64,000 nucleotides of DNA from an uncultured Nitrospirota bacterium. GTDB lineage: Bacteria > Nitrospirota > Nitrospiria > JACRHA01. Location: NCBI GenBank assembly GCA_964481895.1, contig CAYZUL010000003.1:9294-73293 (forward strand). The letters run 5' to 3'. The position numbers and the translations under genes were made by a program. The notes beneath the pieces were generated by a model. That model saw nothing but the letters and a program-made list of their open reading frames with translations, ran no database searches and was not told the DNA's origin. Shown here in pieces: positions 1,037-58,973 of this stretch. Position 1 is the stretch's first letter, and every line of letters begins with the position of its first letter.

Positions 1037-1507
1037 ATGGTATCTGGTATGAGATTAAGAAGAAAGGGAAGGGAATATGCACTGCAGCTTCTCTTTCAGT
1101 TTGATCTTAGCAGGGATGCCGAGGGGCTTTTTGATGGCTTCTGGCAGGGAAAAATCCTCCCTCTCCAGCTGATTGAGTTTACCGATATGCTGGTAAAAGG
1201 GGCTATAGTGCACCTTGCCATGATAGACAGGAAGATCATATCTAATGCCGAGAACTGGAGTCTCGACAGGATGGCGACAGTCGACCGGAACATCCTTAGG
1301 CTTGCAATCTACGAGCTGTTGTATCTGGATGATATCCCTTCAAAGGTAACTATAAATGAGGCGATCGAAATATCAAAGCGTTTCGGGGCAGAAGAATCGG
1401 GCTCTTTTATCAATGGGATACTTGACAGGATAGTTCAGTCTGATGAGAGGTTGATTAACAAGGCGGGAGGCATTAAGAGGATCGTTGGTACGGGTGGTGG
1501 CTCTTAA
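1037..1507 (+). CDS. nusB: transcription antitermination factor NusB
   Basis: 156 aa. REYALQLLFQFDL...DRNILRLAIYELLY...INGILDR NusB motifs. Classic ribH-nusB order. Confidence 0.9.
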   Translation: MVSGMRLRRKGREYALQLLFQFDLSRDAEGLFDGFWQGKILPLQLIEFTDMLVKGAIVHLAMIDRKIISNAENWSLDRMATVDRNILRLAIYELLYLDDIPSKVTINEAIEISKRFGAEESGSFINGILDRIVQSDERLINKAGGIKRIVGTGGGS

Positions 1508-1973
1508 AGAGAAGATAACCAGGATAAGGTTTGACATAATCGTTCTTGGTTTCCTCAAAGATGTAAGGCCGTTAAAGGGCATCATGGCTAATATCGACTG
1601 GATATATTCCGGGGCTATATCAAGGATGATCATAGAGGAAAAGATTTCGGGTTCGGGGGGTGAGGCGCTACTAATGGCGACCGGAGATAAGATGAAGACC
1701 CCGAGGGTTCTCCTCCTGGGACTGGGAGAGACGGCAAATTATTCCTATAATACCATCCTTAGACTCTCCTCTGAGATCGCCGACAGGCTGAGGGAGTTAA
1801 AATTGTCTGGTGGGGCATTTGAGATTCCTGATCTCCCAGGGTCAAGATTGGACAGAGCCAGATCCTTCGATACCTTTATTTCCGGATTTACGGGAGATAA
1901 TACCATGGATATAACTATGCTTGTTAGGGATGATGAGACAGCTGAAGAACTGGAGGAGAGGATCCCTATATGA
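1485..1973 (+). CDS. hypothetical protein; start uncertain (alternative ATG at 1584)
   Basis: 162-aa ORF in the operon between nusB and purB. No confident family assignment. It overlaps the nusB 3' end by 23 nt if the first ATG is used. Confidence 0.45.
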   Translation: MVRVVALKEKITRIRFDIIVLGFLKDVRPLKGIMANIDWIYSGAISRMIIEEKISGSGGEALLMATGDKMKTPRVLLLGLGETANYSYNTILRLSSEIADRLRELKLSGGAFEIPDLPGSRLDRARSFDTFISGFTGDNTMDITMLVRDDETAEELEERIPI

Positions 1974-3265
1974 TAGACAGGTATTCACTCCCTAAAATGA
2001 AGGCGATTTGGGAGCCTGAAAACAAGTTTAAGGCCTGGCTTAAGGTCGAGATACTGGTTTGCGAGGGACAGGCAAGCATAGGGATGATACCTTCCGGTGT
2101 GGCGGAGCGGATAAAAGATAAAGCCCGGGTAGATGTAAGGCGGATAGACAGGATAGAAGAGACGGTAAAGCACGACGTAATAGCCTTTTTGGGTGCCATA
2201 TCAGAAGGTCTCGGGGATGATGCCAAATATATCCATAAGGGGGTTACTTCGTCAGATATTATAGACACTGCCCTGGCGCTGCAGATGAAGGAGGCCGCAG
2301 ATATCATCATTGATGACTTAAAACGCCTGCTTCAAATTTTAAAGGACAAGGCAATAAAATATAAGGAAACGGTGATGATAGGCAGGTCCCACGGTATACA
2401 TGGGGAACCGATTACATTCGGTTTTAAGATGGCCCTCTGGCATGAGGAGGTTTGGAGGAATTTTAAAAGGATGGAGGCTGCAAAAGAGGCCATAAGCTAC
2501 GGGAAGATATCCGGTGCCATGGGGACGTTTGCACACCTTCCGCCTTCAGTGGAGGAATATGTTATGAGAGGGCTTGGATTAAAGCCGGATCCTATCTCAA
2601 GCCAGATAATACAACGTGACCGGCATGCCCAATATTTAACAACCCTTGCAATAATTGCGGGCAGCATAGATAAGTTTGCTACAGAGATCAGGCACCTCCA
2701 GAGGACAGAGGTGCTTGAGGCGGAAGAATTTTTTTCCGAGGGACAGCGGGGTTCATCGGCAATGCCCCACAAGAGAAACCCCGTATCATGCGAGAACCTA
2801 TCGGGTCTTGCAAGGATCGTCAGGGCAAATTCCATTGCCTCCCTCGAAGACATACCTCTATGGCATGAAAGGGATATAAGCCATTCCTCTGTCGAAAGGG
2901 TAATTATACCTGACAGTACTGTTATTATGGACTATATGATTAATAAGTTTACAGACATCCTTGATAAACTGACAGTATATCCTGCCAATATGAAGAAAAA
3001 CCTTGAGCTGACCGGAGGGCTTATCTATTCAGAGCGGGTAATGCTCGAGCTTCTCAAGAATGGTTTGGACAAAGACACGGCATACAGGAAGGTCCAGTCC
3101 CATGCCATGGCAGCGTGGAAGGGGATCGGAAAGTTTATGAGCCTGCTGGCAGATGATCCGGAGGTCAGAAAATACCTGACATACGAGGAGATATCAGACT
3201 GTTTTGAAAATGGATATTATCTGAAAAATATAGATGAGATATACCGTAGGGTATTTGGAAGGTAG
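1970..3265 (+). CDS. purB: adenylosuccinate lyase
   Basis: 431 aa. The N-terminus MIDRYSLPKMKAIWEPENKF and the fumarate-lyase signature (GSSAMPHKRNP) identify it. Confidence 0.95.
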   Translation: MIDRYSLPKMKAIWEPENKFKAWLKVEILVCEGQASIGMIPSGVAERIKDKARVDVRRIDRIEETVKHDVIAFLGAISEGLGDDAKYIHKGVTSSDIIDTALALQMKEAADIIIDDLKRLLQILKDKAIKYKETVMIGRSHGIHGEPITFGFKMALWHEEVWRNFKRMEAAKEAISYGKISGAMGTFAHLPPSVEEYVMRGLGLKPDPISSQIIQRDRHAQYLTTLAIIAGSIDKFATEIRHLQRTEVLEAEEFFSEGQRGSSAMPHKRNPVSCENLSGLARIVRANSIASLEDIPLWHERDISHSSVERVIIPDSTVIMDYMINKFTDILDKLTVYPANMKKNLELTGGLIYSERVMLELLKNGLDKDTAYRKVQSHAMAAWKGIGKFMSLLADDPEVRKYLTYEEISDCFENGYYLKNIDEIYRRVFGR

Positions 3266-3277
3266 ATACCCACGGGC

Positions 3278-3425
3278 AAGGCGAGCATGAGGGGGAGGCT
3301 CCGATGCGGCTTTCGCCATCGGAGGGGGCGACGCAAGCCCCTTTAGATCTATCCAGCAAGCAAAGCGAGCGTTGAGGGGGAGGCTCCATCAGGCTTTGCC
3401 TGTGGAGGGGGCGACGCAAGCCCCT
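3278..3425. repeat. GC-rich intergenic repeat, copy A (two tandem ~65-80-nt units, forward orientation)
   Basis: Units contain GAGGGGGAGGC...GGCTTTGCC...GGAGGGGGCGACGCAAGCCCCT. The same family recurs at 14553-14774, 34899-34994 and 41096-41233. Confidence 0.8.
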
Positions 3426-3447
3426 ATAAATAGAGGAGGATGTTCAA

Positions 3448-3702
3448 TTGAAGGCTCATGTGTATGTTACCTTGAAGAGGGGGATCCTGGATCCGGCGGG
3501 AAAGGCCGTTTTGTCCTCTCTGGAATCGCTGGGATACAAGGGTATATCGCAGGTAAGGATCGGGAAGTATATGGAGATAGACATAGAAGGTCGGTCAAAG
3601 GCTGAGGCGGAGAAGGATATAAAGGATATGTGCGAAACACTCCTCGCAAATACTACCATAGAGGACTATTCTTTTGAAATGGATGATAAAAAGGATTCTT
3701 GA
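3448..3702 (+). CDS. purS: phosphoribosylformylglycinamidine synthase subunit PurS
   Basis: 84 aa. PurS fold sequence KAHVYVTLKRGILDPAGKAV. TTG start at 3448 with RBS AGGAGGA at 3434-3440. Confidence 0.85.
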   Translation: MKAHVYVTLKRGILDPAGKAVLSSLESLGYKGISQVRIGKYMEIDIEGRSKAEAEKDIKDMCETLLANTTIEDYSFEMDDKKDS

Positions 3703-5314: not shown

Positions 5315-7330
5315 ATGGGGTCAGAGTCCTTAAGTTCTGTTATCGCTGAAGCAGAAGAGATAATCGACGGATTAAATCAGAATCTCTTGGCCATGGAGGC
5401 CTCTGATAAATCCAACGTAAAGCCGGATCTTCTGAATAGCGTCTTCAGGGCAGCACATACTTTGAAGGGTATTTCGGGTATGGCTGGGCTCAGGAAGGTT
5501 TCAGATCTGAGTCACAGGATGGAAGAACTCCTGGACGGCCTCCGTATGGGCCGCCTGAGACTTACTGGTAAACTCCTTGATACGCTCTTTGAATCAGTTG
5601 ACACTCTGAGAAGATTGCTGGAGATGGCAAGTTCCGGTTCAGGGGACGATATGGATATTACCCCTGTACTGAAAAAGATCGAGGCAGCGGCTTCCGGCGG
5701 GCCAGACACGGAGTCTTCTTCTGTCCCTGCCGGGGTTGAATTGAACCAGGACATCTATAAGGTACTTACCGAATATGAGACGCACAGGCTAAACGAAAAT
5801 ATAAAGTCAGGAATGGGCCTTTATGAGATTAAGGCGCGGTTCAAGTTTGAAAGCTTCGATAAGGATCTGGTTGACCTTAATAAAAAGCTGCAGGAAATAG
5901 GAGAGATAATTACAACGCTCCCGTCAACAGGGATGTCACCTGAATCGGGTATCGAATTTAACCTAATAATAGGCACTGGTAAGGATCATCTAAGCATACA
6001 GAATGCCCTTGATGGAGAATCTGTAGAGATCAGGAGGATAGGAGGAGGAAAAATAAAGGCGGCGCAGACAGAGAAGGACGAGGAGGCTCCTCCGCAGTCT
6101 ATCCGGGGAGATGCTACTGAATCTATCAAAAGCCTCGCAAAGACCATAAGGGTGGATATAGCAAAACTTGACAGCCTCCTGAATATGGTGGGCGAGCTGG
6201 TCCTTACAAAATCGGTAATCAGCCGTATCAGCAAGGATCTGCTCATGGAGGGGGAGAGGGCAATAGATGTATCAGAACTCCAGAAGGCATCCCAGGATCT
6301 TGACAGAAAGGTGAGCATGCTGCAAGGGGAACTGGTAGAGGCCAGGATGATCCCCATTGGTCAGGTCTTCGAAAGGCTGCTCAGGATCGTCAGGAAGATC
6401 TCTAAAGAACTAAACAAGGAGGTTACCCTCCTGATTTCAGGTGAAGAAACAAAACTGGACAAGTCTATGGTAGAGGAGATAGCCGATCCCCTTATGCACC
6501 TGGTCAGGAATGCAATCGATCACGGGATAGAGGGAAAGGAGGAGCGCCTCAATGGCGGAAAGCCTGAGGCCGGAACCATAAAATTGTCTGCTCAACAGAA
6601 AGGTAACAGCGTTGTTGTGGAGGTTGAGGATGACGGTTCAGGGGTTGACCTTTCAAAGGTATATAAGAAGGCCCTCGAGCGGGGATTATTAGAGGAAAGT
6701 AAGGAGTATGGCCAAAAAGAGCTTTTCAGTTTCTTATTCCTCCCGGGTTTTACTACAAAGGAGGAGGTCACAGATATCTCTGGAAGAGGAGTCGGCCTTG
6801 ATGTGGTGGCCAAAAACATAGGGAAGCTGGGCGGTATGGTGGATATGGACACAGAGCTTGGAAAAGGGACAAAATTCACCCTGACGCTCCCTATTACAAT
6901 GGTAATCATTAAGGCCCTGATAGTAAGCGTAGGGGAGGAGACTTTTGCCATACCCATAAATTCTGTCTCCGAATCGCTTATGATCAAAAAGGGCGATATC
7001 AGGACCGTGGAGAAACATGGTGTTATCCAACTCCGTGACCGAACCCTCTCACTCCTCTGGTTGAGGGAGATATTTGCTCTTCCCTCCAAAGAAGAGAGCG
7101 AAAGGATATATGTTATAGTTGTTGGGCTGGCTGAAAAGAGGCTGGGACTGATAGTTGATGCCATAGAAGGCCAGCAGGAGGTAGTTATTAAATCTATAGG
7201 GAAGATCCTGAAGGATATCCCCGGGATTGCAGGCGCAACGGAGTTGGGAAACAGAAAGACCATCCTTGTCCTTGATATAGGCGCCCTGATAGATGAAGCA
7301 ACCTCGGTATCTTCAAGGCCGGTCAAGTAA
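5315..7330 (+). CDS. cheA: chemotaxis histidine kinase CheA
   Basis: 671 aa. Hpt domain (AAHTLKGISGMAGL), dimerisation domain, HATPase_c (DDGSGVD...GRGVGLDVV) and C-terminal CheW-like domain. Confidence 0.9.
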   Translation: MGSESLSSVIAEAEEIIDGLNQNLLAMEASDKSNVKPDLLNSVFRAAHTLKGISGMAGLRKVSDLSHRMEELLDGLRMGRLRLTGKLLDTLFESVDTLRRLLEMASSGSGDDMDITPVLKKIEAAASGGPDTESSSVPAGVELNQDIYKVLTEYETHRLNENIKSGMGLYEIKARFKFESFDKDLVDLNKKLQEIGEIITTLPSTGMSPESGIEFNLIIGTGKDHLSIQNALDGESVEIRRIGGGKIKAAQTEKDEEAPPQSIRGDATESIKSLAKTIRVDIAKLDSLLNMVGELVLTKSVISRISKDLLMEGERAIDVSELQKASQDLDRKVSMLQGELVEARMIPIGQVFERLLRIVRKISKELNKEVTLLISGEETKLDKSMVEEIADPLMHLVRNAIDHGIEGKEERLNGGKPEAGTIKLSAQQKGNSVVVEVEDDGSGVDLSKVYKKALERGLLEESKEYGQKELFSFLFLPGFTTKEEVTDISGRGVGLDVVAKNIGKLGGMVDMDTELGKGTKFTLTLPITMVIIKALIVSVGEETFAIPINSVSESLMIKKGDIRTVEKHGVIQLRDRTLSLLWLREIFALPSKEESERIYVIVVGLAEKRLGLIVDAIEGQQEVVIKSIGKILKDIPGIAGATELGNRKTILVLDIGALIDEATSVSSRPVK

Positions 7331-14000: not shown

Positions 14001-14540
14001 ATGGCAGAGCGCATCTTTGGAAAACCGATAATAACGCAGGTTGAGATGCAGAGGAGGATAAAGGAACTAGGCAGGCGTATATCGATAGATTATGAAGGAA
14101 AAGATCTGCTTGTGGTCGGTGTATTAAAGGGCGCCTTTGCCTTCTTTGCTGACCTCATAAGGGCCATAAGGCTGCCGGTAAGGGTCGATTTTATAATGGT
14201 CTCGAGCTATGGGGTTAAGAGTAAGCCTGCCGGAAGGGTAAAGGTGATATCTGATCTTACAGCAGATATAGCAGGACAGGATGTGCTCATTGTTGAGGAT
14301 ATTGTTGATTCCGGGCTTACTGTCAACTCCCTGAAGAAGAACCTCATTTCCCGCAGACCCAAATCTCTTAAGTTTTGTGCACTTCTGGATAAGCAGGAGA
14401 GGAGAAAGATAGATGTTGTGATTGACTATGTGGGCTTCAAGATACCGAATAAATATGTGGTTGGTTACGGACTGGATTATCAGGATAAGTATAGAAACCT
14501 GCCTTACATAGCTGTGCTGGAGAATGTTGATGAGGAGTAG
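14001..14540 (+). CDS. hpt: hypoxanthine phosphoribosyltransferase
   Basis: 179 aa. PRPP-binding VLIVEDIVDSGLT. Confidence 0.9.
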   Translation: MAERIFGKPIITQVEMQRRIKELGRRISIDYEGKDLLVVGVLKGAFAFFADLIRAIRLPVRVDFIMVSSYGVKSKPAGRVKVISDLTADIAGQDVLIVEDIVDSGLTVNSLKKNLISRRPKSLKFCALLDKQERRKIDVVIDYVGFKIPNKYVVGYGLDYQDKYRNLPYIAVLENVDEE

Positions 14541-14552
14541 GCGGCCTATTAC

Positions 14553-14774
14553 AGGGGCTTGCGTCGCCCCCTCCACAGGCAAAGCCGAAGCGAGCATCCG
14601 GCTCGGCCGGTGCAAGCGCGGGGTGTGGGGGCATCGGAGGAGCCACTGCACCGGACAGGCCCCCACAGTTGATCGCCGCCTCCCCCTCAACGCTTGCCTG
14701 GCTCGCTGGATAGATCTAAAGGGTCTTGCGTCGCCTCGCCCCTACAACTCAACGCTCGCTTTGCTCGCTGGGGG
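14553..14774. repeat. GC-rich intergenic repeat, copy B (reverse orientation, with ~100-nt GC-rich insertion)
   Basis: AGGGGCTTGCGTCGCCCCCTCCAC...GCCTCCCCCTCAACGCTTGCCTGGCTCGCTGGATAGATCTAAAGGG is the reverse complement of copy A units. Confidence 0.8.
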
Positions 14775-14911
14775 TCCATGTTACCTGATGTTATCTAGAT
14801 ATTGTCATACAATAGAAAGTATGTTAGAATTTTTCCTAAAAGAATTTTTGGTGAAGAGCCTTGGCCTCAAGGCCAGGCAGGCATGATAAGATTATTTTTG
14901 GAGGAATTAGC

Positions 14912-16717
14912 TTGAAATCACGGAATAAATATTGGGTCCTCTGGGTGGTAGTCGGGTTATTTATGATACTCCTTTTTAATCTGTTTACTTTCATAGCCCC
15001 GTCCCAGGAAGAGGAGCTGGTGTTCAGTGATTTCATGAATAAACTTGAGGCCTCTGAAGTTGCCGAGGTTGTTATTAAGCAGAATCATATTAGTGGTCTC
15101 CTGAAGGATGGGAAGAAGTTTAAGACCTATACAACAGATTATCCGGACCTGGTGAAGATACTTCGTGAAAAGCATGTCAAGATAATTGCCAGGCCGCCTG
15201 ATGAGAATCCATGGTATATAGCTTTTCTGGTCACATGGGGGCCGCTCATCTTTGTAATAGCCCTCTGGTTCTTCCTGATGAGACAGATGCAGATGGGGGG
15301 AAACAAGGCGCTCTCTTTTGGAAAGAGCAGGGCAAGGCTTCTTGCTGAGGAAAAGAAGAAGATCACCTTTGCAGATGTAGCCGGGATAGATGAGGCAAAG
15401 GAAGAGGTCACCGAGATCATAGAGTTTTTGAAAGATCCCCACAAGTTCCAGAAGCTTGGAGGCAGGATTCCGAAGGGTGTTCTTATTGTCGGTCCGCCGG
15501 GCACAGGAAAAACCCTTCTGGCAAAGGCTATAGCCGGCGAGGCCGGAGTGCCTTTTTTCAGTATCAGCGGCTCTGATTTTGTAGAGATGTTTGTCGGTGT
15601 CGGGGCCTCAAGGGTGAGAGACCTCTTTGAGCAGGGAAGGAAGAACGCACCCTGCATAATATTCATCGATGAGATAGATGCTGTGGGCCGTTTGCGCGGT
15701 GCAGGTCTTGGCGGCGGACACGATGAAAGGGAACAGACCCTAAACCAGCTCTTAGTTGAGATGGATGGTTTTGAGACCAGTGAGGGTGTCATCCTGATCG
15801 CTGCAACAAACAGACCTGATGTGCTTGATCCAGCCCTGCTCAGGCCAGGAAGGTTCGACAGACAGATAGTCGTCTCAAGGCCTGATGTGAAAGGGAGACT
15901 GGAGATACTCAATGTCCATACAAAGAAGATACCCCTTCCCAAGGAAATGGATCTTGAGGTAATTGCAAGGGGGACACCAGGTTTTTCAGGTGCAGATCTG
16001 GAGAATCTCGTAAATGAGGCGGCGCTTCTTGCCGCAAGGAAGAATAAAAAGGCTGTAGAGATTGACGACTTCGAGTTTGCCAAGGATAAGGTGCTTATGG
16101 GCGTTGAGAGGAAGAGTTTAATAATCAGCGACGCAGAGAAGAGAAATACAGCCTATCACGAGGCCGGTCATGCGCTTGTGGCCAAGATACTCCCCGGCAC
16201 GGATCCTGTCCATAAGGTGACTATAATACCCAGAGGAAGGGCGCTTGGGGTTACCATGCAGCTTCCCACGGATGACAGATATAACTATCCGAAGGAATTT
16301 CTATACAACACCATTGCCATACTCTTAGGCGGAAGGGTTGCAGAGGAGGTCTTCTTAAAGCATATAACAACCGGGGCAGGGAATGATATTGAAAGGGCGA
16401 CTGAACTTGCGAGGAAGATGGTCTGTGAGTGGGGGATGAGCGAGAAGATGGGCCCGCTTACATTCGGCAAGAAGGAGGAGGAGATCTTTCTGGGCCGCGA
16501 GATAGCAAAGCATAGGGATTATAGCGAAACTACTGCCATAGATATAGATAATGAGGTAAAGCGCCTGGTATTTGAGAACTATGAGCGGGCAAAGGATATA
16601 ATTATAAAAAATATGAATGCCTTAAAGGGTATTGCTGAGGCCCTTTTGGAAAGGGAGGTGCTTGATGCGCAGGAGATCGACAAGATCATAAGCGAGGCAG
16701 CGCCATCTTTAACCTAA
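14912..16717 (+). CDS. ftsH: ATP-dependent zinc metalloprotease FtsH
   Basis: Walker [12 protein letters not shown] motif and HEAGH zinc site. Likely TTG start at 14912, preceded by GGAGGA at 14900-14905 (the ORF is open from 14861). Confidence 0.93.
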
Positions 16718-16873
16718 GATATGTATCTGCTATTTTAATTGCACCTACACTGCCTCCCTTCCAAAAAATAAAAAAAATCATGACCTTAAAAAAGTTTAGC
16801 TGATTTATTTCTATTCGCTTTTTTATTGCAGGATTGTCTTCGATCACGAACAATTTTCCGATGGAGAGGAGAT

Positions 16874-34883: not shown

Positions 34884-34898
34884 ATGCAACCGACGTTG

Positions 34899-34994
34899 TC
34901 GTAGGGGGCAGGGCTTGCCATGCTCAGCGAGCAAAGCGAGCGTTGAGGGGGAGGCGACGATCATCTGTCGGTGGAGGGGGCGACGCAAGCCCCT
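34899..34994. repeat. GC-rich intergenic repeat, copy C (forward orientation, single unit)
   Basis: CAGCGAGCAAAGCGAGCGTTGAGGGGGAGGCGACGATCATCTGTCGGTGGAGGGGGCGACGCAAGCCCCT. It ends immediately before the ispD RBS, as copy A does before purS. Confidence 0.8.
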
Positions 34995-35010
34995 GTAATA
35001 GGAGGGATGG

Positions 35011-36241: not shown

Positions 36242-36998
36242 ACCTCAATTGGGCATTCTCAAGGGCTACCGATGCATAGTGGGCAAATACGGAGAGGAGT
36301 TCCAGGTCATATTCCGTAAAGGCATGCCTCTCATTGCTAAAACAAGAGCAGTTAAGAACCCCGATCACCTTAACGCCTAAGCTCAAAGGGACACAAAGGG
36401 AAGAGAAAATATCGGCCTCCTTATCGATAAAATTGATAAAGCGGCCCCCCTTTACCTTGCCTGGCAGGATTATTGGTTCTCCTGTTTTGGCTACCCAGCC
36501 TGCTACACCCTCACCGATCTTCTGGGGTTTGAAGAATTTTTCCTCCAGGCCTGATGATGCTGCAACAATAAGGGTTTCACCCTTTTCATCAATAAGCATG
36601 ATTGAACTTCTGCTTATTTTAAACAATTCGAGAACGGATTTTAAAAGCTTATCCAGCGCCTTATGGGGTTCCTTTTCCAGGCTCACCGCTTCAACGGCCT
36701 TATGGAGAGTTGAGATCTCCTTGAGCTTTGTGTTCAGCAGTGATATTGTAACCTCCTGTTCTAATGTCTGGAGCTCTTCAATCCTCAATTGCCGGTTTAA
36801 TTCCATCAGTCTCCGTTCTTTGTCGACCACATATGAGCAGAAGAGGAAAGAAAAGATCCCCAGGAAGATGAGGAAAGTGCTTTTGCTTTCCAGAAAATAG
36901 GACAGGGCTATTACTGAGGTAGAGTAGACGGCTATTACCAGGATGGCGATAATCCAGAGTTCACGCCGCCTTTTTTCTATATCATTCCGTTTCATCAC
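36210..36998 (-). CDS. membrane-anchored GAF domain protein
   Basis: 262 aa. Two TM helices, a coiled-coil and a GAF domain (GEGVAGWVAKTGEPIIL). Confidence 0.65.
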   Translation of the reverse strand: MMKRNDIEKRRRELWIIAILVIAVYSTSVIALSYFLESKSTFLIFLGIFSFLFCSYVVDKERRLMELNRQLRIEELQTLEQEVTISLLNTKLKEISTLHKAVEAVSLEKEPHKALDKLLKSVLELFKISRSSIMLIDEKGETLIVAASSGLEEKFFKPQKIGEGVAGWVAKTGEPIILPGKVKGGRFINFIDKEADIFSSLCVPLSLGVKVIGVLNCSCFSNERHAFTEYDLELLSVFAHYASVALENAQLRSKSKKDPHHQ

Positions 36999-41080: not shown

Positions 41081-41095
41081 TTAGATACCATTCCT

Positions 41096-41233
41096 AGGGG
41101 CTTGCGTCGCCCCCTCCACCGGCCAGGCCGGATGGAGCCTCCCCCTCAACGCTCGCAACGCTCGCTGGGTTGATACCCACTTGCAGGGGCTTTAGTCGCC
41201 CCCTACAACTCAATGCTTACTTTGCCCGCTTGG
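41096..41233. repeat. GC-rich intergenic repeat, copy D (reverse orientation)
   Basis: AGGGGCTTGCGTCGCCCCCTCCACC...GCCTCCCCCTCAACGCTCGCAACGCTCGCTGGG...GGGGCTTTAGTCGCCCCCTACAACTCAATGC, between the topA stop and the xerC start. Confidence 0.8.
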
Positions 41234-41246
41234 TGTACTCCTAATC

Positions 41247-43517
41247 TTAGGCTGTTTCTGCCTCTTTGTGTCCGCAACCCTCAGTCCTGCACTGGATGTT
41301 GATTTCACCGCCGGACCTCTTCTCTATCATGAATGGCGCCTTGCACAGGGGGCATGCCTTAGGGACGGGTTTTTCCCAGATTGCGAATTTACATTTAGGA
41401 TAGTTGGTGCAGGAATAAAATATCTTCCCCCTTTTTGTCCTCTTTTCTGTTAGTTCGCCGCCGCACCCTTCTTCAGGGCATTTAATGCCCGTAGTAATGG
41501 TCCTTGTATTCTGGCATTCGGGATAGCCTTCGCAGGCAAGGAATCTCCCGAATCTCCCCCTCTTTATAACCATCTTTTTACCGCACTTATCACATACCTC
41601 ATTGGTAATTTCAGTCTTGTCAATTACCTCAATCTCCCCGGTATCTTTTTTTACAAATTCCTTCGTGTTCTTGCATTCAGGGTAGCCGGGGCATGCCAGA
41701 AACTTCCCGTTCCTTCCCCATTTTATAACCATCTTCTTGCCGCATTTATCACAGGATATATCCGTATGAACCTCTTCCCTCTTAACGTTCTTCATCTCCA
41801 GTCCTGCCTTTTTAAGGCTATCCTGGAAGGGGTCATAGAAATCCCTTACAGCCTCGACCCATTCCTTCTCTCCCTCCTCTATCTCATCGAGTTCTTCTTC
41901 CATTTTTGCTGTAAATTCGACATCAATGATATTGGGGAAATGTGCAACGAGGAGTTCGTTTACGATGGTGCCGAGTTCTGTTGGTTTAAGCTTCCCCTCG
42001 ACCTTTTCTACATACTTCCTGTCCTGGATTGTGGTTACTATGGCGGCATAGGTGCTGGGTCTCCCTATCTCTTTCTCCTCCAGTTCCTTTATGAGTGTTG
42101 CCTCCGTATACCTTGGCGGCGGCTGGGTGAAGTGCTGTTTAGGTTCAAGGTTCAAGGGCCTTAGTTCCTCTCCTACTTCAAGCTGCGGCAGCCTTGAACC
42201 GTCTTCTTCTTCAGCCTCCTGAGACCCGTGGGTCTGTTCGACCTCTCCTCTTTCTTCTGAGTATACTGCTGTAAATCCTGGAAATCTGACGATCGAACCA
42301 GTTGCCTTAAAGAGATATTCACCTGCCCCGATATCTACCCGTGTAATGTCCATGATAGCCGGGTTCATCTGCGAGGCAACAAACCTGTTCCATATCAGTT
42401 TGTAGAGATTGTAATGATCACGCCCAAGATATGCCTTTATCTTCTCAGGGTCCCTTGTTATTGATGTTGGCCTTATAGCCTCATGGGCCTCCTGGGCGGT
42501 CTTTTTGGTCTTATAGACCGGGGGCTTGGCAGGGAGATAGTCTCTGCCATATTTTTCGATTATATAGCCTCTTACCTCTTCCTGGGCCTCCTCCCCGATC
42601 CTGGTTGAATCGGTACGCATATAGGTTATGAGGCCTACAGGACCCTCATCTCCTATCTCTATCCCTTCATAGAGTTGCTGGGCCAATAGCATGGTCTTTT
42701 TTGGGGAGAATTTTAACTTCTGTGATGCCTCCTGCTGAAGTCTGCTTGTAATGAAAGGCGCTACAGGATTCCTCCTCTTCTCCTTTTTTTCGATATTCTT
42801 TACTACAAAACTTCTACCTTCAAGCAGCCTCACTACTTCAGCGGCCGCGGCCCCGTTACCAATATCGATCTCCTCATCGCCCTTTTTGAAAAGCTTTGCC
42901 TCAAAGGGGGGAGGCAATTTTCCTTCCAGTCTTGCAGTTATGGACCAGTACTCTTCGGTTACAAAGGATGTTATCGCGCTCTCCCTTTCGCATATAAGTC
43001 TCACAGCTACAGACTGCACCCTTCCTGCGCTTAACCCCCTCCTTACCTTTTCCCATAAAAGGGGGCTTAGCATATATCCCACAATCCGGTCGAGTATCCT
43101 CCTGGCCTGCTGTGCATTTACCTTCTTCAGATCCAGCCTTCCCGGGTGCTCCATGGCCTTTCTTATTGCAGTTTCTGTAATCTCGTTGAAAAGAACCCTG
43201 TAGATCCTATCGCTGTTGCCATTTAACTCCTCGGCTATATGCCAGGCAATGGCCTCCCCCTCACGGTCAGGGTCGGGGGCTAGGTAGATCTTTTTTGCAG
43301 TCTTTGCCGACTTCTTAATCTCATCGATAAATTTTCCCTTGTCTTTGATCGTTACATATTCAGGTCTGAAATCGTTATCTATATCTATGCCCAGTTTCTT
43401 CACCGGCAGGTCTCTTACATGACCCATTGATGCCTTTACTATATAATCCTTTCCAAGGTACTTGCTGATTGTCTTGGCCTTGGAAGGCGATTCGACTATC
43501 ACGACCGACTTAGACAT
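41247..43517 (-). CDS. topA: DNA topoisomerase I
   Basis: 756 aa. TOPRIM N-terminus (VVIVESPSKAKTISKYLG), an active-site Tyr region and C-terminal C4 zinc ribbons. Confidence 0.95.
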   Translation of the reverse strand: MSKSVVIVESPSKAKTISKYLGKDYIVKASMGHVRDLPVKKLGIDIDNDFRPEYVTIKDKGKFIDEIKKSAKTAKKIYLAPDPDREGEAIAWHIAEELNGNSDRIYRVLFNEITETAIRKAMEHPGRLDLKKVNAQQARRILDRIVGYMLSPLLWEKVRRGLSAGRVQSVAVRLICERESAITSFVTEEYWSITARLEGKLPPPFEAKLFKKGDEEIDIGNGAAAAEVVRLLEGRSFVVKNIEKKEKRRNPVAPFITSRLQQEASQKLKFSPKKTMLLAQQLYEGIEIGDEGPVGLITYMRTDSTRIGEEAQEEVRGYIIEKYGRDYLPAKPPVYKTKKTAQEAHEAIRPTSITRDPEKIKAYLGRDHYNLYKLIWNRFVASQMNPAIMDITRVDIGAGEYLFKATGSIVRFPGFTAVYSEERGEVEQTHGSQEAEEEDGSRLPQLEVGEELRPLNLEPKQHFTQPPPRYTEATLIKELEEKEIGRPSTYAAIVTTIQDRKYVEKVEGKLKPTELGTIVNELLVAHFPNIIDVEFTAKMEEELDEIEEGEKEWVEAVRDFYDPFQDSLKKAGLEMKNVKREEVHTDISCDKCGKKMVIKWGRNGKFLACPGYPECKNTKEFVKKDTGEIEVIDKTEITNEVCDKCGKKMVIKRGRFGRFLACEGYPECQNTRTITTGIKCPEEGCGGELTEKRTKRGKIFYSCTNYPKCKFAIWEKPVPKACPLCKAPFMIEKRSGGEINIQCRTEGCGHKEAETA

Positions 43518-58195: not shown

Positions 58196-58340
58196 ATATC
58201 TCCAATCGCCCTATGCTTGACAACCCGATAGCATTGTATCATACTATAAATGAGCGATAAGACCGTTGTGGGTTCCTTTGGCGTTCCCTTCCGTAGGTTG
58301 GCCAAGCCAGAGGGCACGCACCCACAGGGCACGCTCATTT

Positions 58341-58973
58341 TTATGGTAAATAAACGTCATCGTATTTGATCTTACTCTTAAAAACGTCAAACCATTCCTT
58401 ATCATCTTTTTCGTATTTCCGGAAGATCCCCCAGGAAAATAAATCAACTGCCTGAAGAGGCAGGTCTTCATGGGAAAGATGGTGATCTATATCGAGTGGG
58501 ATTCTTGGTTCTATTCTGCCGCTTAACTGACGGATCAGGTAGTCATCGAACTCTCTTATTTCTTTCTTACTCTTGCTCCTGTCTATTACAAGTCCGACTC
58601 TTACCGAGGCATTTGTAAAAGGAATGACATCAAGAACTTTTCTTGCGATAAAGTTGTAAACCCTGTCCTTTTTCTGTGACAAATAATCATATACCCGTCT
58701 TTTGTTGAGCGTGAGGGCGTAAAGCTCGAAGGGGACAGCTTCAACATGCCGGTAAAAATATCTCTTTATTTCTATGGATTGCTTTGACCCTTTCAGTTCA
58801 GTCTGTTGTTTCGGGAATTTACTTTGCAGGGTTCTTTTTACAGCCTTAGCTATTTTCTTCCTGTTTTCCATGTCATGTACCAGCATTACAGTAACCGTAA
58901 AATACTTCGACGGTTTCTTTGCGAAGAAGTCGAACCCCAGGTCGCCGCTTTCATCAAGGTACAAATATAGCAT
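58341..58973 (-). CDS. DUF3800 family protein
   Basis: 210 aa. N-terminal MLYLYLDESGDLGF, the hallmark DUF3800 motif. Confidence 0.6.
   Translation of the reverse strand: MLYLYLDESGDLGFDFFAKKPSKYFTVTVMLVHDMENRKKIAKAVKRTLQSKFPKQQTELKGSKQSIEIKRYFYRHVEAVPFELYALTLNKRRVYDYLSQKKDRVYNFIARKVLDVIPFTNASVRVGLVIDRSKSKKEIREFDDYLIRQLSGRIEPRIPLDIDHHLSHEDLPLQAVDLFSWGIFRKYEKDDKEWFDVFKSKIKYDDVYLP

Follow-up and report, generated by a model that had tools for sequence, protein, structure and literature searches.

The 64-kb Nitrospirota stretch analysed here in its entirety (the window) carries seven units of a short repeat at four intergenic loci, designated A to D (Table 1). The units were located by scanning the window, with filters off, using a covariance model (CM) built from related copies. 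The initial annotation had listed four dispersed copies in both orientations; the loci and orientations were confirmed, and the four loci together comprise seven units. At every locus a partial or short unit comes first and a full unit second, and the neighbouring units are direct tandem repeats (4 of 4 loci), as they are in arrays such as L001, where identical units follow one another with a period of 86 nt. The 22-mer GGAGGGGGCGACGCAAGCCCCT was found five times exactly and once with three mismatches (3321, 3404 and 34973 on the plus strand; 14553, 41096 and 41185 on the minus strand) and was not expected at all from 100 dinucleotide shuffles, and GAGCGTTGAGGGGGAGGC occurred four times against 0.04 expected. 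Two further CM matches, at 36377-36477 and 43216-43288, lie within coding regions (a GAF-domain gene and topA, respectively) and were rejected as chance.

Table 1. Repeat units and flanking genes in the window. Positions are those of the window; CM, covariance model.
Feature	Coordinates	Strand	Support	Components
purB (adenylosuccinate lyase)	1970..3265	+	Pfam	
Unit A1 (5'-rearranged)	3262..3347	+	CM 60.5 bits at 3264-3347	H2 3299-3324; H3 3325-3341
Unit A2 (canonical)	3348..3435	+	CM 94.1 bits	H1 3356-3370; linker 3371-3383; H2 3384-3407; H3 3408-3424; tail 3425-3434
hpt	14001..14540	+	Pfam; upstream neighbour of locus B	
Unit B-long	14543..14716	-	CM 48.1 bits at 14543-14629; true extent to about 14716	H3 14554-14570
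Unit B-short	14710..14776	-	CM 26.2 bits, E = 2e-5	
Partial 5' unit or leader, locus C	34897..34918	+		GTCGTAGGGGGCAGGGCTTGCC
Unit C	34919..35004	+	CM 60.0 bits	H1 34927-34941; linker 34942-34954; H2 34955-34976; H3 34977-34993
Unit D (canonical)	41086..41173	-	CM 86.9 bits	H3 41097-41113
Unit D-short	41175..41237	-	CM 26.5 bits, E = 1.7e-5	GTAG-type H3 41186-41202

The minimal unit of ~86 nt consists, in order, of the trinucleotide YAG, a 6 bp hairpin (H1), a purine-rich linker (GAGGGGGAGG), a second hairpin (H2) of ~10 bp, a third hairpin (H3) and a tail. H2 is variable, free in sequence and accepts inserted modules. H3 (GGGGC-GACGCAA-GCCCC) is invariant, and the tail is an A/T-rich 9 nt with the consensus T-ATAATAGA. 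The hairpin initially ascribed to each copy was present in every full unit, with stem GGGGC/GCCCC and loop GACGCAA. Short units have GTAG directly 5' of H3, where canonical units have GGAG; GTAG also begins a further segment, H0.

At locus A, unit A1 opens with GTAG (3262-3265), of which the last three bases are the stop codon of purB, and continues with the 5' half of H0, a truncated H1 and, after H2 and H3, the tail TTTAGATCT; 70 nt of this unit are 100% identical to L014, from a different Nitrospirota MAG. Unit A2 has the H1 stem GCAAGC/GCGAGC, the linker GTTGAGGGGGAGG and the tail TATAAATAGA, which shares the bases AG with the ribosome-binding site of purS (GAGGAGG, 3433-3439; TTG start at 3448, Pfam PurS). 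Unit C, with the tail TGTAATAGG, is likewise followed directly by the ribosome-binding site and TTG start (35011) of ispD (Pfam IspD), confirming the earlier observation that the copies at A and C abut ribosome-binding sites: both end directly 5' of the Shine-Dalgarno sequence. The H2 of unit C is a degenerate deletion derivative of the long form described below, and the leader upstream of it, GTAG with a remnant of a G-run, is conserved in the relative L116.

Locus B lies antisense between hpt and ftsH, both on the plus strand. In unit B-long the H1, linker, H3 and tail are canonical, and a conserved GC-rich module of ~87 nt takes the place of the 5' strand of H2. The extra sequence had been noticed initially as an insertion in this copy; it is real, and it belongs to a recurrent long subfamily rather than being private to the locus. 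Copies in L101, L070, L051, L048, L018, L050 and L010 match copy B at 90-93% identity, and an alignment of 13 copies of the long subfamily is nearly invariant. A pseudoknot can be drawn in the long H2 module (GUGGGGGC/GCCCCCAC interleaved with CCGGUGCA/UGCACCGG), the 13 copies being nearly identical there. Neither short unit has an H2: B-short consists of H1 followed by GTTGAGTTGTAGGGGCGAGGCGACGCAAGACCC, a degenerate H3 of the GTAG type, and D-short of a degenerate H1 followed by GTTGAGTTGTAGGGGGCGACTAAAGCCCCT, which holds the 22-mer with three mismatches. Unit D has the same orientation as topA and the xerC-like recombinase gene (Pfam Topoisom_bac and Phage_integrase); the distance from its tail to the ATG of the xerC-like gene (41080) is 5-6 nt if measured from the 3' end of the model and about 13 nt if the 9-nt tail is defined by sequence (~41087-41095). 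The element swaps modules and forms tandem arrays.

The predicted pairing of H1 and H2 was examined across copies. Paired cells amounted to 89.8%, compared with 79.5% in shuffles, and cells with double changes numbered 98 compared with 23; the covariation score of 0.251 (0.085 in shuffles) was reached by none of 500 shuffles, and slid controls gave at most 0.067. An independent metagenome set gave the same fraction of paired cells (89.8%), 182 double changes versus 40.5, and covariation of 0.259 versus 0.075. Conservation of H1 and H2 is at the level of structure; the covariation evidence pertains to these two hairpins, and the database scans were anchored on the H3 core. The two strands are not equivalent, with 54 G.U cells versus 22 A.C cells, and the commonest H1 contains tandem G.A/A.G pairs that would be C.T/T.C on the opposite strand. 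The strand that folds well is the one read GGGGC..GCCCC. RNA folding, suggested at the outset as a check, gave single-sequence z-scores of only -0.7 to -2.4 and inconsistent MFE structures, whereas covariation was strong. Pairing between the linker G-run and the 3' strand of H3 was considered and is not required, linker variants such as GAGGAGGAGG having no G-run. Folds resembling a tRNA cloverleaf, the HDV ribozyme or twister were rejected by topology, by hand, and had no support from Rfam. In a search of the whole window against Rfam 15 at the gathering threshold, the only match was DUF3800-V at 58247-58341, and no family was found at the repeat. In E-value mode, 300-nt slices of two loci gave Gl_U1 (E = 0.058) and Intron_gpII (E = 0.79) as best matches, at 16-18 bits compared with gathering thresholds of 40-100 bits.

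A unit usually follows a stop codon and precedes the next ribosome-binding site. Upstream ORFs ended no more than 20 nt from H1 in 25 of 79 cases, 22 of 57 downstream starts lay within 20 nt of the tail, and several units adjoin the 5' ends of tRNAs. Between co-directional neighbours, 53 units were sense and 22 antisense. A first crude estimate of this bias was 54:14, and a second gene-calling rule with the metagenome set included gave 95:54; because the estimate fell, the bias (about 64-71% on crude gene calls) is regarded as only moderate. Roughly 30% of copies run antisense to the genes on both sides, as locus B of the window does in three genomes. Given the stop-to-ribosome-binding-site position and the roughly two-thirds of copies in sense orientation, the unit is probably co-transcribed. 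A co-transcribed unit may act as a putative stable intercistronic cluster of RNA hairpins, an effect that would be secondary, and the role of mRNA stabiliser raised in the initial annotation is a possible one. A sequence scan found no promoter in the element.

These features bear on the proposal that the unit is a host-selected, cis-acting structured RNA of operons, such as an RNase processing site with a 3'-exonuclease barrier, a ribosome stand-by site or an insulator, whose multiplicity is a by-product. The strong covariation of H1 and H2, the excess of G.U over A.C on the sense strand, the preference for the orientation of the neighbours, the tight placement by gene ends and starts, and the Shine-Dalgarno-like purine linker and H3 loop, invariant across phyla, all agree with such an RNA, as do the units at tRNA 5' ends, where RNase P would free a unit with a defined 3' end. 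Against it stand the copies antisense to both neighbours, locus B included, the close relatives that lack the unit at the same operon junctions, the functionally unrelated neighbouring genes, the tandem arrays of identical units (L001) and the lack of an Rfam family; moreover, the gene-end duplications described below are not explained by an RNA role alone. A host RNA of this kind is considered an unlikely explanation of the family.

The terminator function first suggested for the element was not borne out: no T-run follows H3 (tail TATAATAGA) and a terminator scan was negative within the units. That the units only seem repetitive and are in fact common intrinsic terminators, attenuators or integron attC sites has next to no probability. 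A GC-rich H3 downstream of genes would suit this account, and GCGTTGAG is loosely like an attC R' box, but units lie inside operons directly 5' of ribosome-binding sites, some are antisense, and the unit is >90% conserved between phyla. Neither an inverse core (RYYYAAC), nor cassette arrays, nor an adjacent intI was found, and many copies carry GCGAGAGG in place of GCGTTGAGG. The integrase-family gene nearby is the chromosomal xerC-like gene beside topA, and the neighbours are housekeeping genes.

The 19-mer H3 core occurred, among the matches listed, at numbers of loci exceeding 105 in genomes and 120 in metagenomes. The labels of these sequences were Nitrospirota, Desulfobacterota (Syntrophorhabdaceae/Syntrophus), Myxococcales, Patescibacteria/Saccharibacteria and Pseudomonadota, although MAG labels may contain errors. 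Subfamilies are lineage-specific and differ in H1 and H2, whereas H3 and the linker are common to several phyla; the ~86-nt multi-hairpin unit is >90% conserved between phyla, and the flanking genes are dissimilar at the DNA level. Phage (INPHARED), plasmid (PLSDB) and viral contig collections contained no match to the element, and hence no copies that could explain spread between phyla. Literature searches, in full text for a 17-mer and by keyword, returned nothing relevant. REP, BOX, ERIC and similar structured interspersed repeats do not normally extend beyond one genus. An identical hairpin across phyla implies that the unit either crossed between them very recently or is recognised by a conserved factor.

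The loci were compared with orthologous sites in relatives, hpt serving as the query for filled or empty locus B sites. The purB-purS, hpt-ftsH and ispD sites are all empty in relatives whose flanking proteins are 76-93% identical. At purB-purS the empty site is that of CAZYNY010000071. At hpt-ftsH the site is empty in L110 and L111, carries a short-H2 form in L108 and the long form in L107 and the window, and at ispD an intact long form is present in L116 (93% identical IspD) and the site is empty in L118 (76%). Empty orthologous sites in such close relatives demonstrate that the element is mobile. The difference between filled and empty Nitrospirota alleles at the three sites was a replacement of ~18-60 nt, with no clean insertion and no duplication. 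Short-read contigs break at the element in L106, L109, L115 and L117.

Locus A affects purB over its last 72 codons and its stop codon. The protein ends in ..VFGR* in the window and in ..VFEDKGAGN* in the empty-site relative (L113 comparison). In a comparison of the window with relative C, only purB was hyper-divergent, and only in the 200 nt leading up to the element, the 72 codons containing 14 synonymous and 15 non-synonymous changes, and purS downstream differed at 3 of 255 nt.

The element has a sharp 3' end and a ragged 5' end, sequence information dropping to zero at +9 after GCCCCT. Approximately 13 of ~235 copies (~5%, among the matches listed) are flanked by duplications, 20-89 nt long, of a gene or tRNA end, and these begin 3-12 nt past the core. 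Besides tRNAs, the duplicated ends include those of GrpE, LexA, NuoC and UDG-like genes. In all seven diverged duplications the two copies are identical beside the 3' end of the element and then differ, mostly at synonymous positions; the identical tract directly 3' of the element measured 16-41 nt in six of the seven. Codon usage gives mixed signals on which duplicate is foreign, the upstream one looking native in three of four cases and third-position GC in L216 suggesting the opposite. TTGAT stands 5' of the duplicated target in L025 and L216, target contexts elsewhere being heterogeneous. Among the roles first guessed for the element, that of a recombination hotspot is the one most favoured by these data. 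The initial annotation had missed the covarying three-hairpin architecture, the two-unit tandem loci, the near-identity between phyla and the long, polar gene-end duplications.

If the element were SINE-like, reverse transcription would start at the 3' end of an RNA that stops at the tail, which predicts 5'-truncated copies, co-mobilised upstream mRNA and variable-length target duplications. The conserved 3' end with a variable or truncated 5' part (A1, B-short, D-short), the polypurine tract, the 20-89 nt duplications and the sense bias fit such an origin. No reverse transcriptase lies near the copies, however, no repeat tail follows the 3' end, and most copies have no duplication; furthermore, the synonymous differences within diverged duplicates indicate two functional alleles, so the duplicated DNA comes from another genome and not from the cell's own mRNA. 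A SINE-like origin is highly improbable.

Candidate mobilisers were sought near the copies. The 761 ORFs of 105 element-centred loci included no recurrent transposase, integrase or reverse transcriptase, and all-against-all clustering of these ORFs yielded only generic families (sensor kinases, ABC ATPases). The association with a REP-associated transposase that had been anticipated was not seen: tblastn with RayT and IS608 TnpA queries found no linked RAYT in 1.58 Mb of element-centred DNA. The sole Y1_Tnp gene in that DNA, in L042 (PF01797, E = 2.9e-16), is flanked by 23-nt inverted repeats unrelated to the element.

The ends of the element are relevant to its class. The MITE half of the original REP/MITE-like label is not supported: terminal inverted repeats are absent, the 5' end (GTAGATACC.. 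or YAG-H1) having no reverse complementarity to the 3' end (..GCCCCTATAATAGA), and so is a short target-site duplication of fixed length, filled and empty alleles showing none at the three sites and duplications elsewhere varying from 20 to 89 nt. The REP half holds for a dispersed, hairpin-forming intergenic family of the REP/BIME kind that is present in both orientations and mobile. Compared with a REP palindrome, the element is also extragenic and multi-copy with a GTAG or GGAG foot, but it is a three-hairpin array of ~86 nt. The inverted doublets typical of REPINs were not found, the window loci and L001 being direct tandems.

The boundary 9 nt past H3, together with strand-specific folding, is a feature of IS200/IS605 right ends, and the element could be a right-end-only derivative of an IS200/IS605 (HUH/Y1) transposon, a relic like a PATE or an omega RNA. 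H3 and the tail would then be the subterminal hairpin and cleavage site, and the transcript might be a guide-RNA scaffold whose 3' flank guides homing into matching alleles. The precise boundary beside a ragged 5' end, the ordinary sites without target-site duplication, the REP-like GTAG/GGAG immediately 5' of the hairpin foot and the TTGAT before two duplicated targets are as this derivation predicts, and a tract of 16-41 nt is as long as a guide-target match or a minimal segment for recombination would be. Against these, none of the copies examined is linked to a Y1 (tnpA) or tnpB gene, no such ORF recurs near the copies, no left end is present, Rfam IS605-orfB/HEARO-type families are unmatched even at E = 10, sequences before the target are otherwise heterogeneous, and cross-phylum identity is atypical of such families; to our knowledge, moreover, IS200/IS605 elements do not make flanking duplications. 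Such a derivation is judged very unlikely.

On balance, these data favour, with some confidence, a non-autonomous mosaic repeat of the REP/BIME kind with a defined 3' terminus, spread in part by recombination. The four window loci would be insertions of a modular, hairpin-forming interspersed repeat, like REP/BIME or BOX. By analogy with HUH transposases and IS200/IS605 right ends, we infer that H3 and the tail may form the recognition and cleavage module of a putative trans-acting enzyme that sets the 3' terminus. An element resident beside a gene would be passed to homologous loci in other genomes, where a strand ending at the tail would bring the donor gene end with it, homology anchoring the gene side and illegitimate joining occurring at the 3' terminus. 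Such a strand-transfer step would produce both the replaced gene ends and the polar duplications.

A 19-nt hairpin kept exact across phyla, loop included, is not what transposon ends usually show and in that respect goes against a mobile mosaic repeat; a conserved host factor or an RNA function could lie behind the exact cross-phylum H3 instead.

There is also a slim chance that the ends of homologous genes or tRNAs are rewritten by an undescribed system for mobility or recombination, with the unit as its cis-acting 3' end. In such a system a strand stopping 9 nt past H3 would enter homologous 3' ends in other genomes, the donor gene end would keep the gene intact, and the resident end would be pushed aside. 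The match needed by such a system would be the 16-41-nt identical tract, as a minimal pairing segment or as the site recognised by an omega-RNA-like guide.

A ~86-nt unit with an identical 19-nt hairpin is common to Nitrospirota, Desulfobacterota, Patescibacteria and others of anoxic groundwater and sediment. It reshapes the ends of essential genes, as where it supplies the stop codon of purB in the window, marks polar recombination junctions, and breaks up the short-read assemblies of these uncultured lineages. MAG annotation would benefit from a covariance model of the element, which would also provide a marker of recent gene flow. If polar gene-end replacement stems from a dedicated mechanism, it would be a new route by which a minimal element enters conserved genes without killing them, and if an undescribed system is at work, it would be a tiny element, common to several phyla, that spreads horizontally and rewrites gene ends.

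No RNA family or transposon type described so far matches the element, and its likeness to known systems is partial in each case. With IS200/IS605 right ends, PATEs and TnpB omega/reRNAs it shares a subterminal hairpin with a boundary ~10 nt later, strand-specific folding, the lack of target duplication and a transcript that would end at the boundary and run on into flanking DNA. The element differs from these transposons in having no left end, no tnpA/tnpB and no Rfam IS605-orfB match, and in the flanking duplications of ~5% of copies. Elements that integrate at 3' ends, such as tRNA islands and ICESt1/CIME in fda, likewise bring a variant copy that completes the gene and push the resident end downstream, where it forms a direct repeat; 3' halves of tRNAs are frequent targets. 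Unlike these islands, the element has only ~90-130 nt between the repeats and encodes no integrase, and the restored segment is different for each target gene, which makes a fixed attP impossible. Like the element, BOX of Streptococcus pneumoniae, and also ERIC/IRU and MIRU, are modular intergenic repeats with stable folds. BOX has the composition boxA-boxB(n)-boxC, is co-transcribed with its neighbours, varies in module number and has no known transposase; mycobacterial MIRUs resemble the element further in occupying intercistronic spacers and forming tandem arrays. The element has no sequence similarity to these repeats and differs from them in its sharp 3' terminus and invariant terminal hairpin. 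BOX, ERIC and MIRU are each confined to one genus or family. REP/BIME of Enterobacteria and the REPINs of Pseudomonas are mobilised by RAYT, a Y1 HUH transposase. The element differs from REPINs in being a direct tandem repeat, not an inverted doublet, with three or four different hairpins in fixed order, and from REPs in having no linked RAYT and an H3 core identical across phyla, REPs being species-specific; we know of no long polar gene-end duplications described for REPs. Like REP/BIME, the element is short, GC-rich, extragenic and palindromic, has GTAG or GGAG at the 5' foot where REP/BIME have GTAG, is free of terminal inverted repeats and target-site duplications, and is present in many copies per genome, intergenic, often in operons and in mosaics with other motifs.

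The repeat is a structured, strand-specific and modular element with a precise 3′ end; it is polymorphic between relatives and common to several phyla. In the window, the 22-mer and the second motif on which the initial annotation had based the family did recur beyond chance (five exact occurrences and one with three mismatches against an expectation of none, and four occurrences against 0.04, respectively). The four reported loci stood, but not the single copy assigned to each: every locus is a short tandem array, and a covariance-model search located seven units. An exact search for the 19-mer GGGGGCGACGCAAGCCCCT, using one genome per species, returned at least 105 loci, and a JGI metagenome search at least 120 further loci. 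Copies occur at no fewer than 225 loci in all, and the helices show covariation.

Positions of repeat units, element modules and other features in the window and in fetched loci (L numbers) from other genomes or metagenomes
Sequence	Positions	Strand	Feature	Basis
Window	3264-3347	+	unit, locus A (purB/purS)	covariance model; genes, Pfam
Window	3348-3435	+	unit, locus A	covariance model
Window	14543-~14716	-	unit, locus B (hpt/ftsH)	covariance model; genes, Pfam
Window	14710-14776	-	unit, locus B	covariance model
Window	34919-35004	+	unit, locus C (PIN-TRAM gene/ispD)	covariance model; genes, Pfam
Window	41086-41173	-	unit, locus D (topA/xerC-like recombinase)	covariance model; genes, Pfam
Window	41175-41237	-	unit, locus D	covariance model
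Window	14586-14665	-	long H2 module	
Window	16717-16850		ftsH-folP spacer	
L107	12760-12960		ftsH-folP spacer	
Window	41506-41594, 41665-41753		direct repeat in topA	
Window	58247-58341	+	DUF3800-V RNA motif	Rfam
L061	320-440		heptamer module	
L062	~2190-2290		heptamer module	
L070	~5945-6080, 6660-6730		heptamer module	
L099	~1420-1500		heptamer module	
L108	193-1900		block unaligned to window	
L042	1332-2346		Y1_Tnp gene	PF01797
L042	4413-4560		second insertion at tRNA-Gln 3′ end	

The unit consensus was derived from 124 oriented copies lined up. From its 5′ start the unit comprises (Y)AG; H1, most commonly GCGAGC-AAA-GCGAGC, a stem of 6 bp with tandem G.A/A.G as its two middle pairs; a purine-rich linker, G(A/TT)GAGGGGGAGG; H2, typically CTCCATCCGGC-TTT-GCCGGTGGAG and otherwise free in sequence; H3, GGGGC-GACGCAA-GCCCC; and the tail, T-ATAATAGA. 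Other lineages have fully Watson-Crick H1 stems instead (e.g. GCCCAC/GTGGGC, GCGGC/GCCGC and GCTCAC/GTGAGC). The unit has a sharp 3′ boundary, sequence information falling to background by +9 after GCCCCT, and a ragged 5′ one; a five-unit array in L001 repeats every ~86 nt, the length of the minimal unit. A further hairpin of 15 bp, H0 (GTAGATACCCACGGGC...GCCCGTGGGTATCTAC), is present in many Nitrospirota copies, with a compensatory variant in L062, and other copies have different leaders instead. In some of the Nitrospirota copies, units with GCGAGCGGATGCGAGC as H1 carry an extra conserved module upstream, with three to five tandem heptamers (GGAGTCA/GGGGTCA) followed by GGAAAGTCTGGATTCTGAATCTTTTAAAC, which is one more piece of the element mosaic. 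The extra GC-rich DNA reported at locus B is present but is not a private insertion; it is a conserved module that hardly varies among 13 copies taken from several genomes. This long H2 module, found in the window and at 12 other loci, can be drawn as an H-type pseudoknot in which GUGGGGGC/GCCCCCAC would interleave with CCGGUGCA/UGCACCGG, the 13 copies being too alike for covariation.

In a 55-sequence MAFFT alignment, 89.8% of cells in the three helices were paired (79.5% when shuffled), both sides of a pair had changed in 98 cells (23 expected), and the covariation score was 0.251 against 0.085; none of 500 shuffles reached 0.251, and slid-register controls peaked at 0.067. The metagenome copies gave 89.8% paired cells, 182 double-change cells against 40.5 and a covariation score of 0.259 against 0.075, in an alignment fitted to the covariance model and thus favouring the modelled structure. 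H3 was without any variation in searches that were themselves anchored on its sequence; its loop was also invariant in extra copies recovered by the model without that anchor. Because G.U cells outnumbered A.C cells (54 and 22), and H1 has tandem G.A pairs that would become C.T pairs on the opposite strand, the strand as written is the folding strand. No Rfam family matched the element, even at E = 10 on 300-nt slices. The sole Rfam match in the window was a full-length DUF3800-V motif (71.4 bits, gathering score 37.4, E = 3.6e-14). The units contained no sigma-70-like promoter and no terminator-like site, and the tail has no T-run, which speaks against the terminator role first proposed; attC core sites were absent. 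An 89-nt direct repeat of 76% identity in topA was rejected as an element copy, being a coding repeat of C4 zinc-ribbon domains (Zn_ribbon_Top1, three stretches).

Hpt homologues placed the window in the Nitrospirota. Since two relatives, JACRHA010000109 (GCA_016234185.1) and CAZYNY01 (GCA_964648095.1), share ~94% and ~91% DNA identity with the window, orthologous sites could be compared. In CAZYNY010000071 locus A lacks the element and the purB-purS gap is 13 nt; purB ends there in ..VFEDKGAGN* and in the window in ..VFGR*, its stop being the TAG of the element's GTAG, with ~18 nt replaced and the purS RBS directly after the tail. At locus B, the window and JACRHA01 have a long and a short unit, where CAZYNY01 has a standard unit with a short H2 together with a truncated short unit; the locus is empty in L110 and L111 (91% and 76% Hpt identity). 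The long form is intact at locus C in a relative whose IspD is 93% identical, so the poorly pairing H2 of the window derives from that form by an internal deletion; in another relative (76%) an unrelated spacer of 60 nt takes its place. These differences at loci A to C show that the element has been gained, lost and remodelled over the time in which species diverge. Four short-read contigs (L106, L109, L115 and L117; Logan and ENA) stop inside the element or at its edge, L115 starting GAGGGGGCGACGCAAGCCCC; such ends are expected of a dispersed repeat and indicate that it fragments short-read assemblies of the genomes that bear it. The ftsH-folP spacer is ~130 nt longer in the 94%-identical relative (L107), the extra DNA including another palindromic repeat, TGTCATCCCCGAATG...CGGGAATGACG, unrelated to the element; L110 has a similar palindrome, GTCATTCCGAA...TTCGGAATGAC. 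In the 91%-identical relative (L108), compared with the window upstream of ~10500, a small unaligned block with DUF433, 23S_rRNA_IVP and a Polbeta/HepT-like toxin-antitoxin pair resembles an accessory islet beside the conserved hemB-ribF-tilS-hpt-ftsH run.

Ordinary insertion sites show no duplication. About 13 of ~235 copies, all outside the window lineage, lie between direct duplicates of 20-89 nt, of which the downstream one starts 3-12 nt past the H3-containing core, i.e. at the 3′ boundary of the element. The duplicated segment is usually the 3′ end of a protein gene (NifU-like, L025; LexA-like, L084; UDG-like, L026; NuoC, L105; GrpE, L023; VOC/epimerase-like, L216; an unnamed ORF, L140) or of a tRNA (tRNA-Gln, L042, three copies with two elements; tRNA-Ala, L183; tRNA-Arg, L188); in L022 it is the 5′ half of tRNA-Lys with its promoter. 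The upstream duplicate completes the gene, and in L216 and L023 its stop codon is supplied by the element leader, as in window purB. The tRNA duplicates differ little or not at all. The seven diverged protein duplicates all start with an identical stretch (8, 16, 23, 24, 24, 32 and 41 nt) and the remaining differences are mostly synonymous (11 of 11 in NuoC, 7 of 7 in LexA, and 8 plus 2 conservative replacements in GrpE). Amino-acid replacements are present as well in L140 and L026, the latter also with an in-frame indel. Non-synonymous changes would build up in a duplicate that had lost its function and was decaying where it lay; two functional alleles are therefore needed, which requires DNA brought in by recombination from a related genome.

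The polarity of the duplications was consistent (7 of 7, two-sided p ~0.016) and agrees with a model that takes the downstream copy as the resident segment. The upstream copy would be resident up to a crossover and would continue as donor gene end, leader and element, whose 3′ terminus would be joined to the beginning of that segment. This model also explains the gene-end replacement at locus A, and is supported there because the end of purB is divergent and purS much less so. When the window is compared with CAZYNY01, 14 synonymous and 15 non-synonymous differences fall in the last 72 codons of purB, where other stretches have ~4 and 1.5 per 40 codons; the adjacent downstream gene, purS, has 3 differences in 255 nt. 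In the reverse arrangement, import may begin at the tail and run downstream; codon usage of the duplicates is an ambiguous pointer to which copy is foreign. Spread between genomes would combine homology in the adjacent gene with a joint at the 3′ terminus that is illegitimate or made by an enzyme.

Host labels came from the record titles of element-bearing contigs, in which MAG taxonomy may mislead. The carriers are Nitrospirota (including Manganitrophaceae/Troglogloeales), Syntrophorhabdaceae, Syntrophus and other "Deltaproteobacteria", Myxococcales, Patescibacteria/Saccharibacteria and one uncultured Pseudomonadota MAG; two complete chromosomes and one 2.4-Mb contig are among those listed. 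AT-rich Patescibacteria contigs keep the linker, H3 and tail unchanged and have their own H1 and H2 (e.g. GCCGCGACCGCGGC and CTTCATTTGGG/CCCAAATGAAG), and these copies are thus not Nitrospirota binning contaminants. DNA similarity between the fetched loci and the window was limited to the element.

No copy was found in phage, plasmid or viral contig collections, and no transposase, integrase or reverse transcriptase recurred among 761 ORFs around 105 copies. The integrase-family neighbour at locus D was rejected as an element-borne enzyme, being a chromosomal xerC-like gene beside topA and hslV. The suggested association with a RAYT-type transposase was not found in 1.58 Mb of fetched DNA, where tblastn with two Y1 transposase queries yielded one Y1_Tnp gene, with unrelated repeats. 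This gene (319 aa, IS200-like/RAYT-like) lies in L042 between perfect 23-nt inverted repeats, CAAGGGGTCAAGTCTTGACTTTT, 2 kb from the tRNA-Gln with the triplicated 3′ end. A second insertion at that tRNA-Gln is a different element, ending GGGGCGCGAGCCCCTGTAATAACA, with a stem and tail as in H3 and a different loop and body; this suggests sister families with a common kind of 3′ end and target. We infer that H3 and the tail form the recognition/cleavage module of a putative trans-acting factor.

A unit usually takes up the space from a stop codon to the following ribosome-binding site. Among 79 upstream ORFs on the strand of the unit, 25 have their end no more than 20 nt from H1, and among 57 downstream ORFs that share its strand and have a Shine-Dalgarno sequence, 22 have their start no more than 20 nt from the tail; several units abut tRNA genes exactly. 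A first, crude count against the upstream gene gave 54 co-oriented and 14 opposed copies; a second gene-calling rule gave 95 and 54 over both data sets, and 53 sense and 22 antisense between co-directional genes. The sense bias is real but moderate. Orientations of + - + - in the window, and flips with local gene direction within single loci, argue against a purely replication-linked bias. From this placement and bias, the unit is probably transcribed within operons, and as an RNA hairpin cluster it could act on processing, stability or translational coupling. A host-selected function of this kind was ranked second because antisense copies amount to ~30% and the same junctions are without the element in close relatives.

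Literature searches, in which coverage of searchable texts was incomplete, found no published description of the element. REPINs are defined by inverted doublets and a RAYT, and MITEs, to which the initial annotation had likened the family, by terminal inverted repeats and a short target duplication of fixed length; the element has neither the doublets nor the two MITE features, no RAYT linked to it was found in the fetched DNA, and it failed the defining tests of terminators, attC sites and every Rfam family. In function it resembles REP/BIME, BOX, ERIC and MIRU repeats. Its GTAG/GGAG foot and its geometry of a hairpin ~9 nt from the end are reminiscent of REPs; that geometry, and nothing else, is common to IS200/IS605 right ends. 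Cross-phylum identity and polar gene-end duplications may set the element apart from REP/BOX-like repeats.
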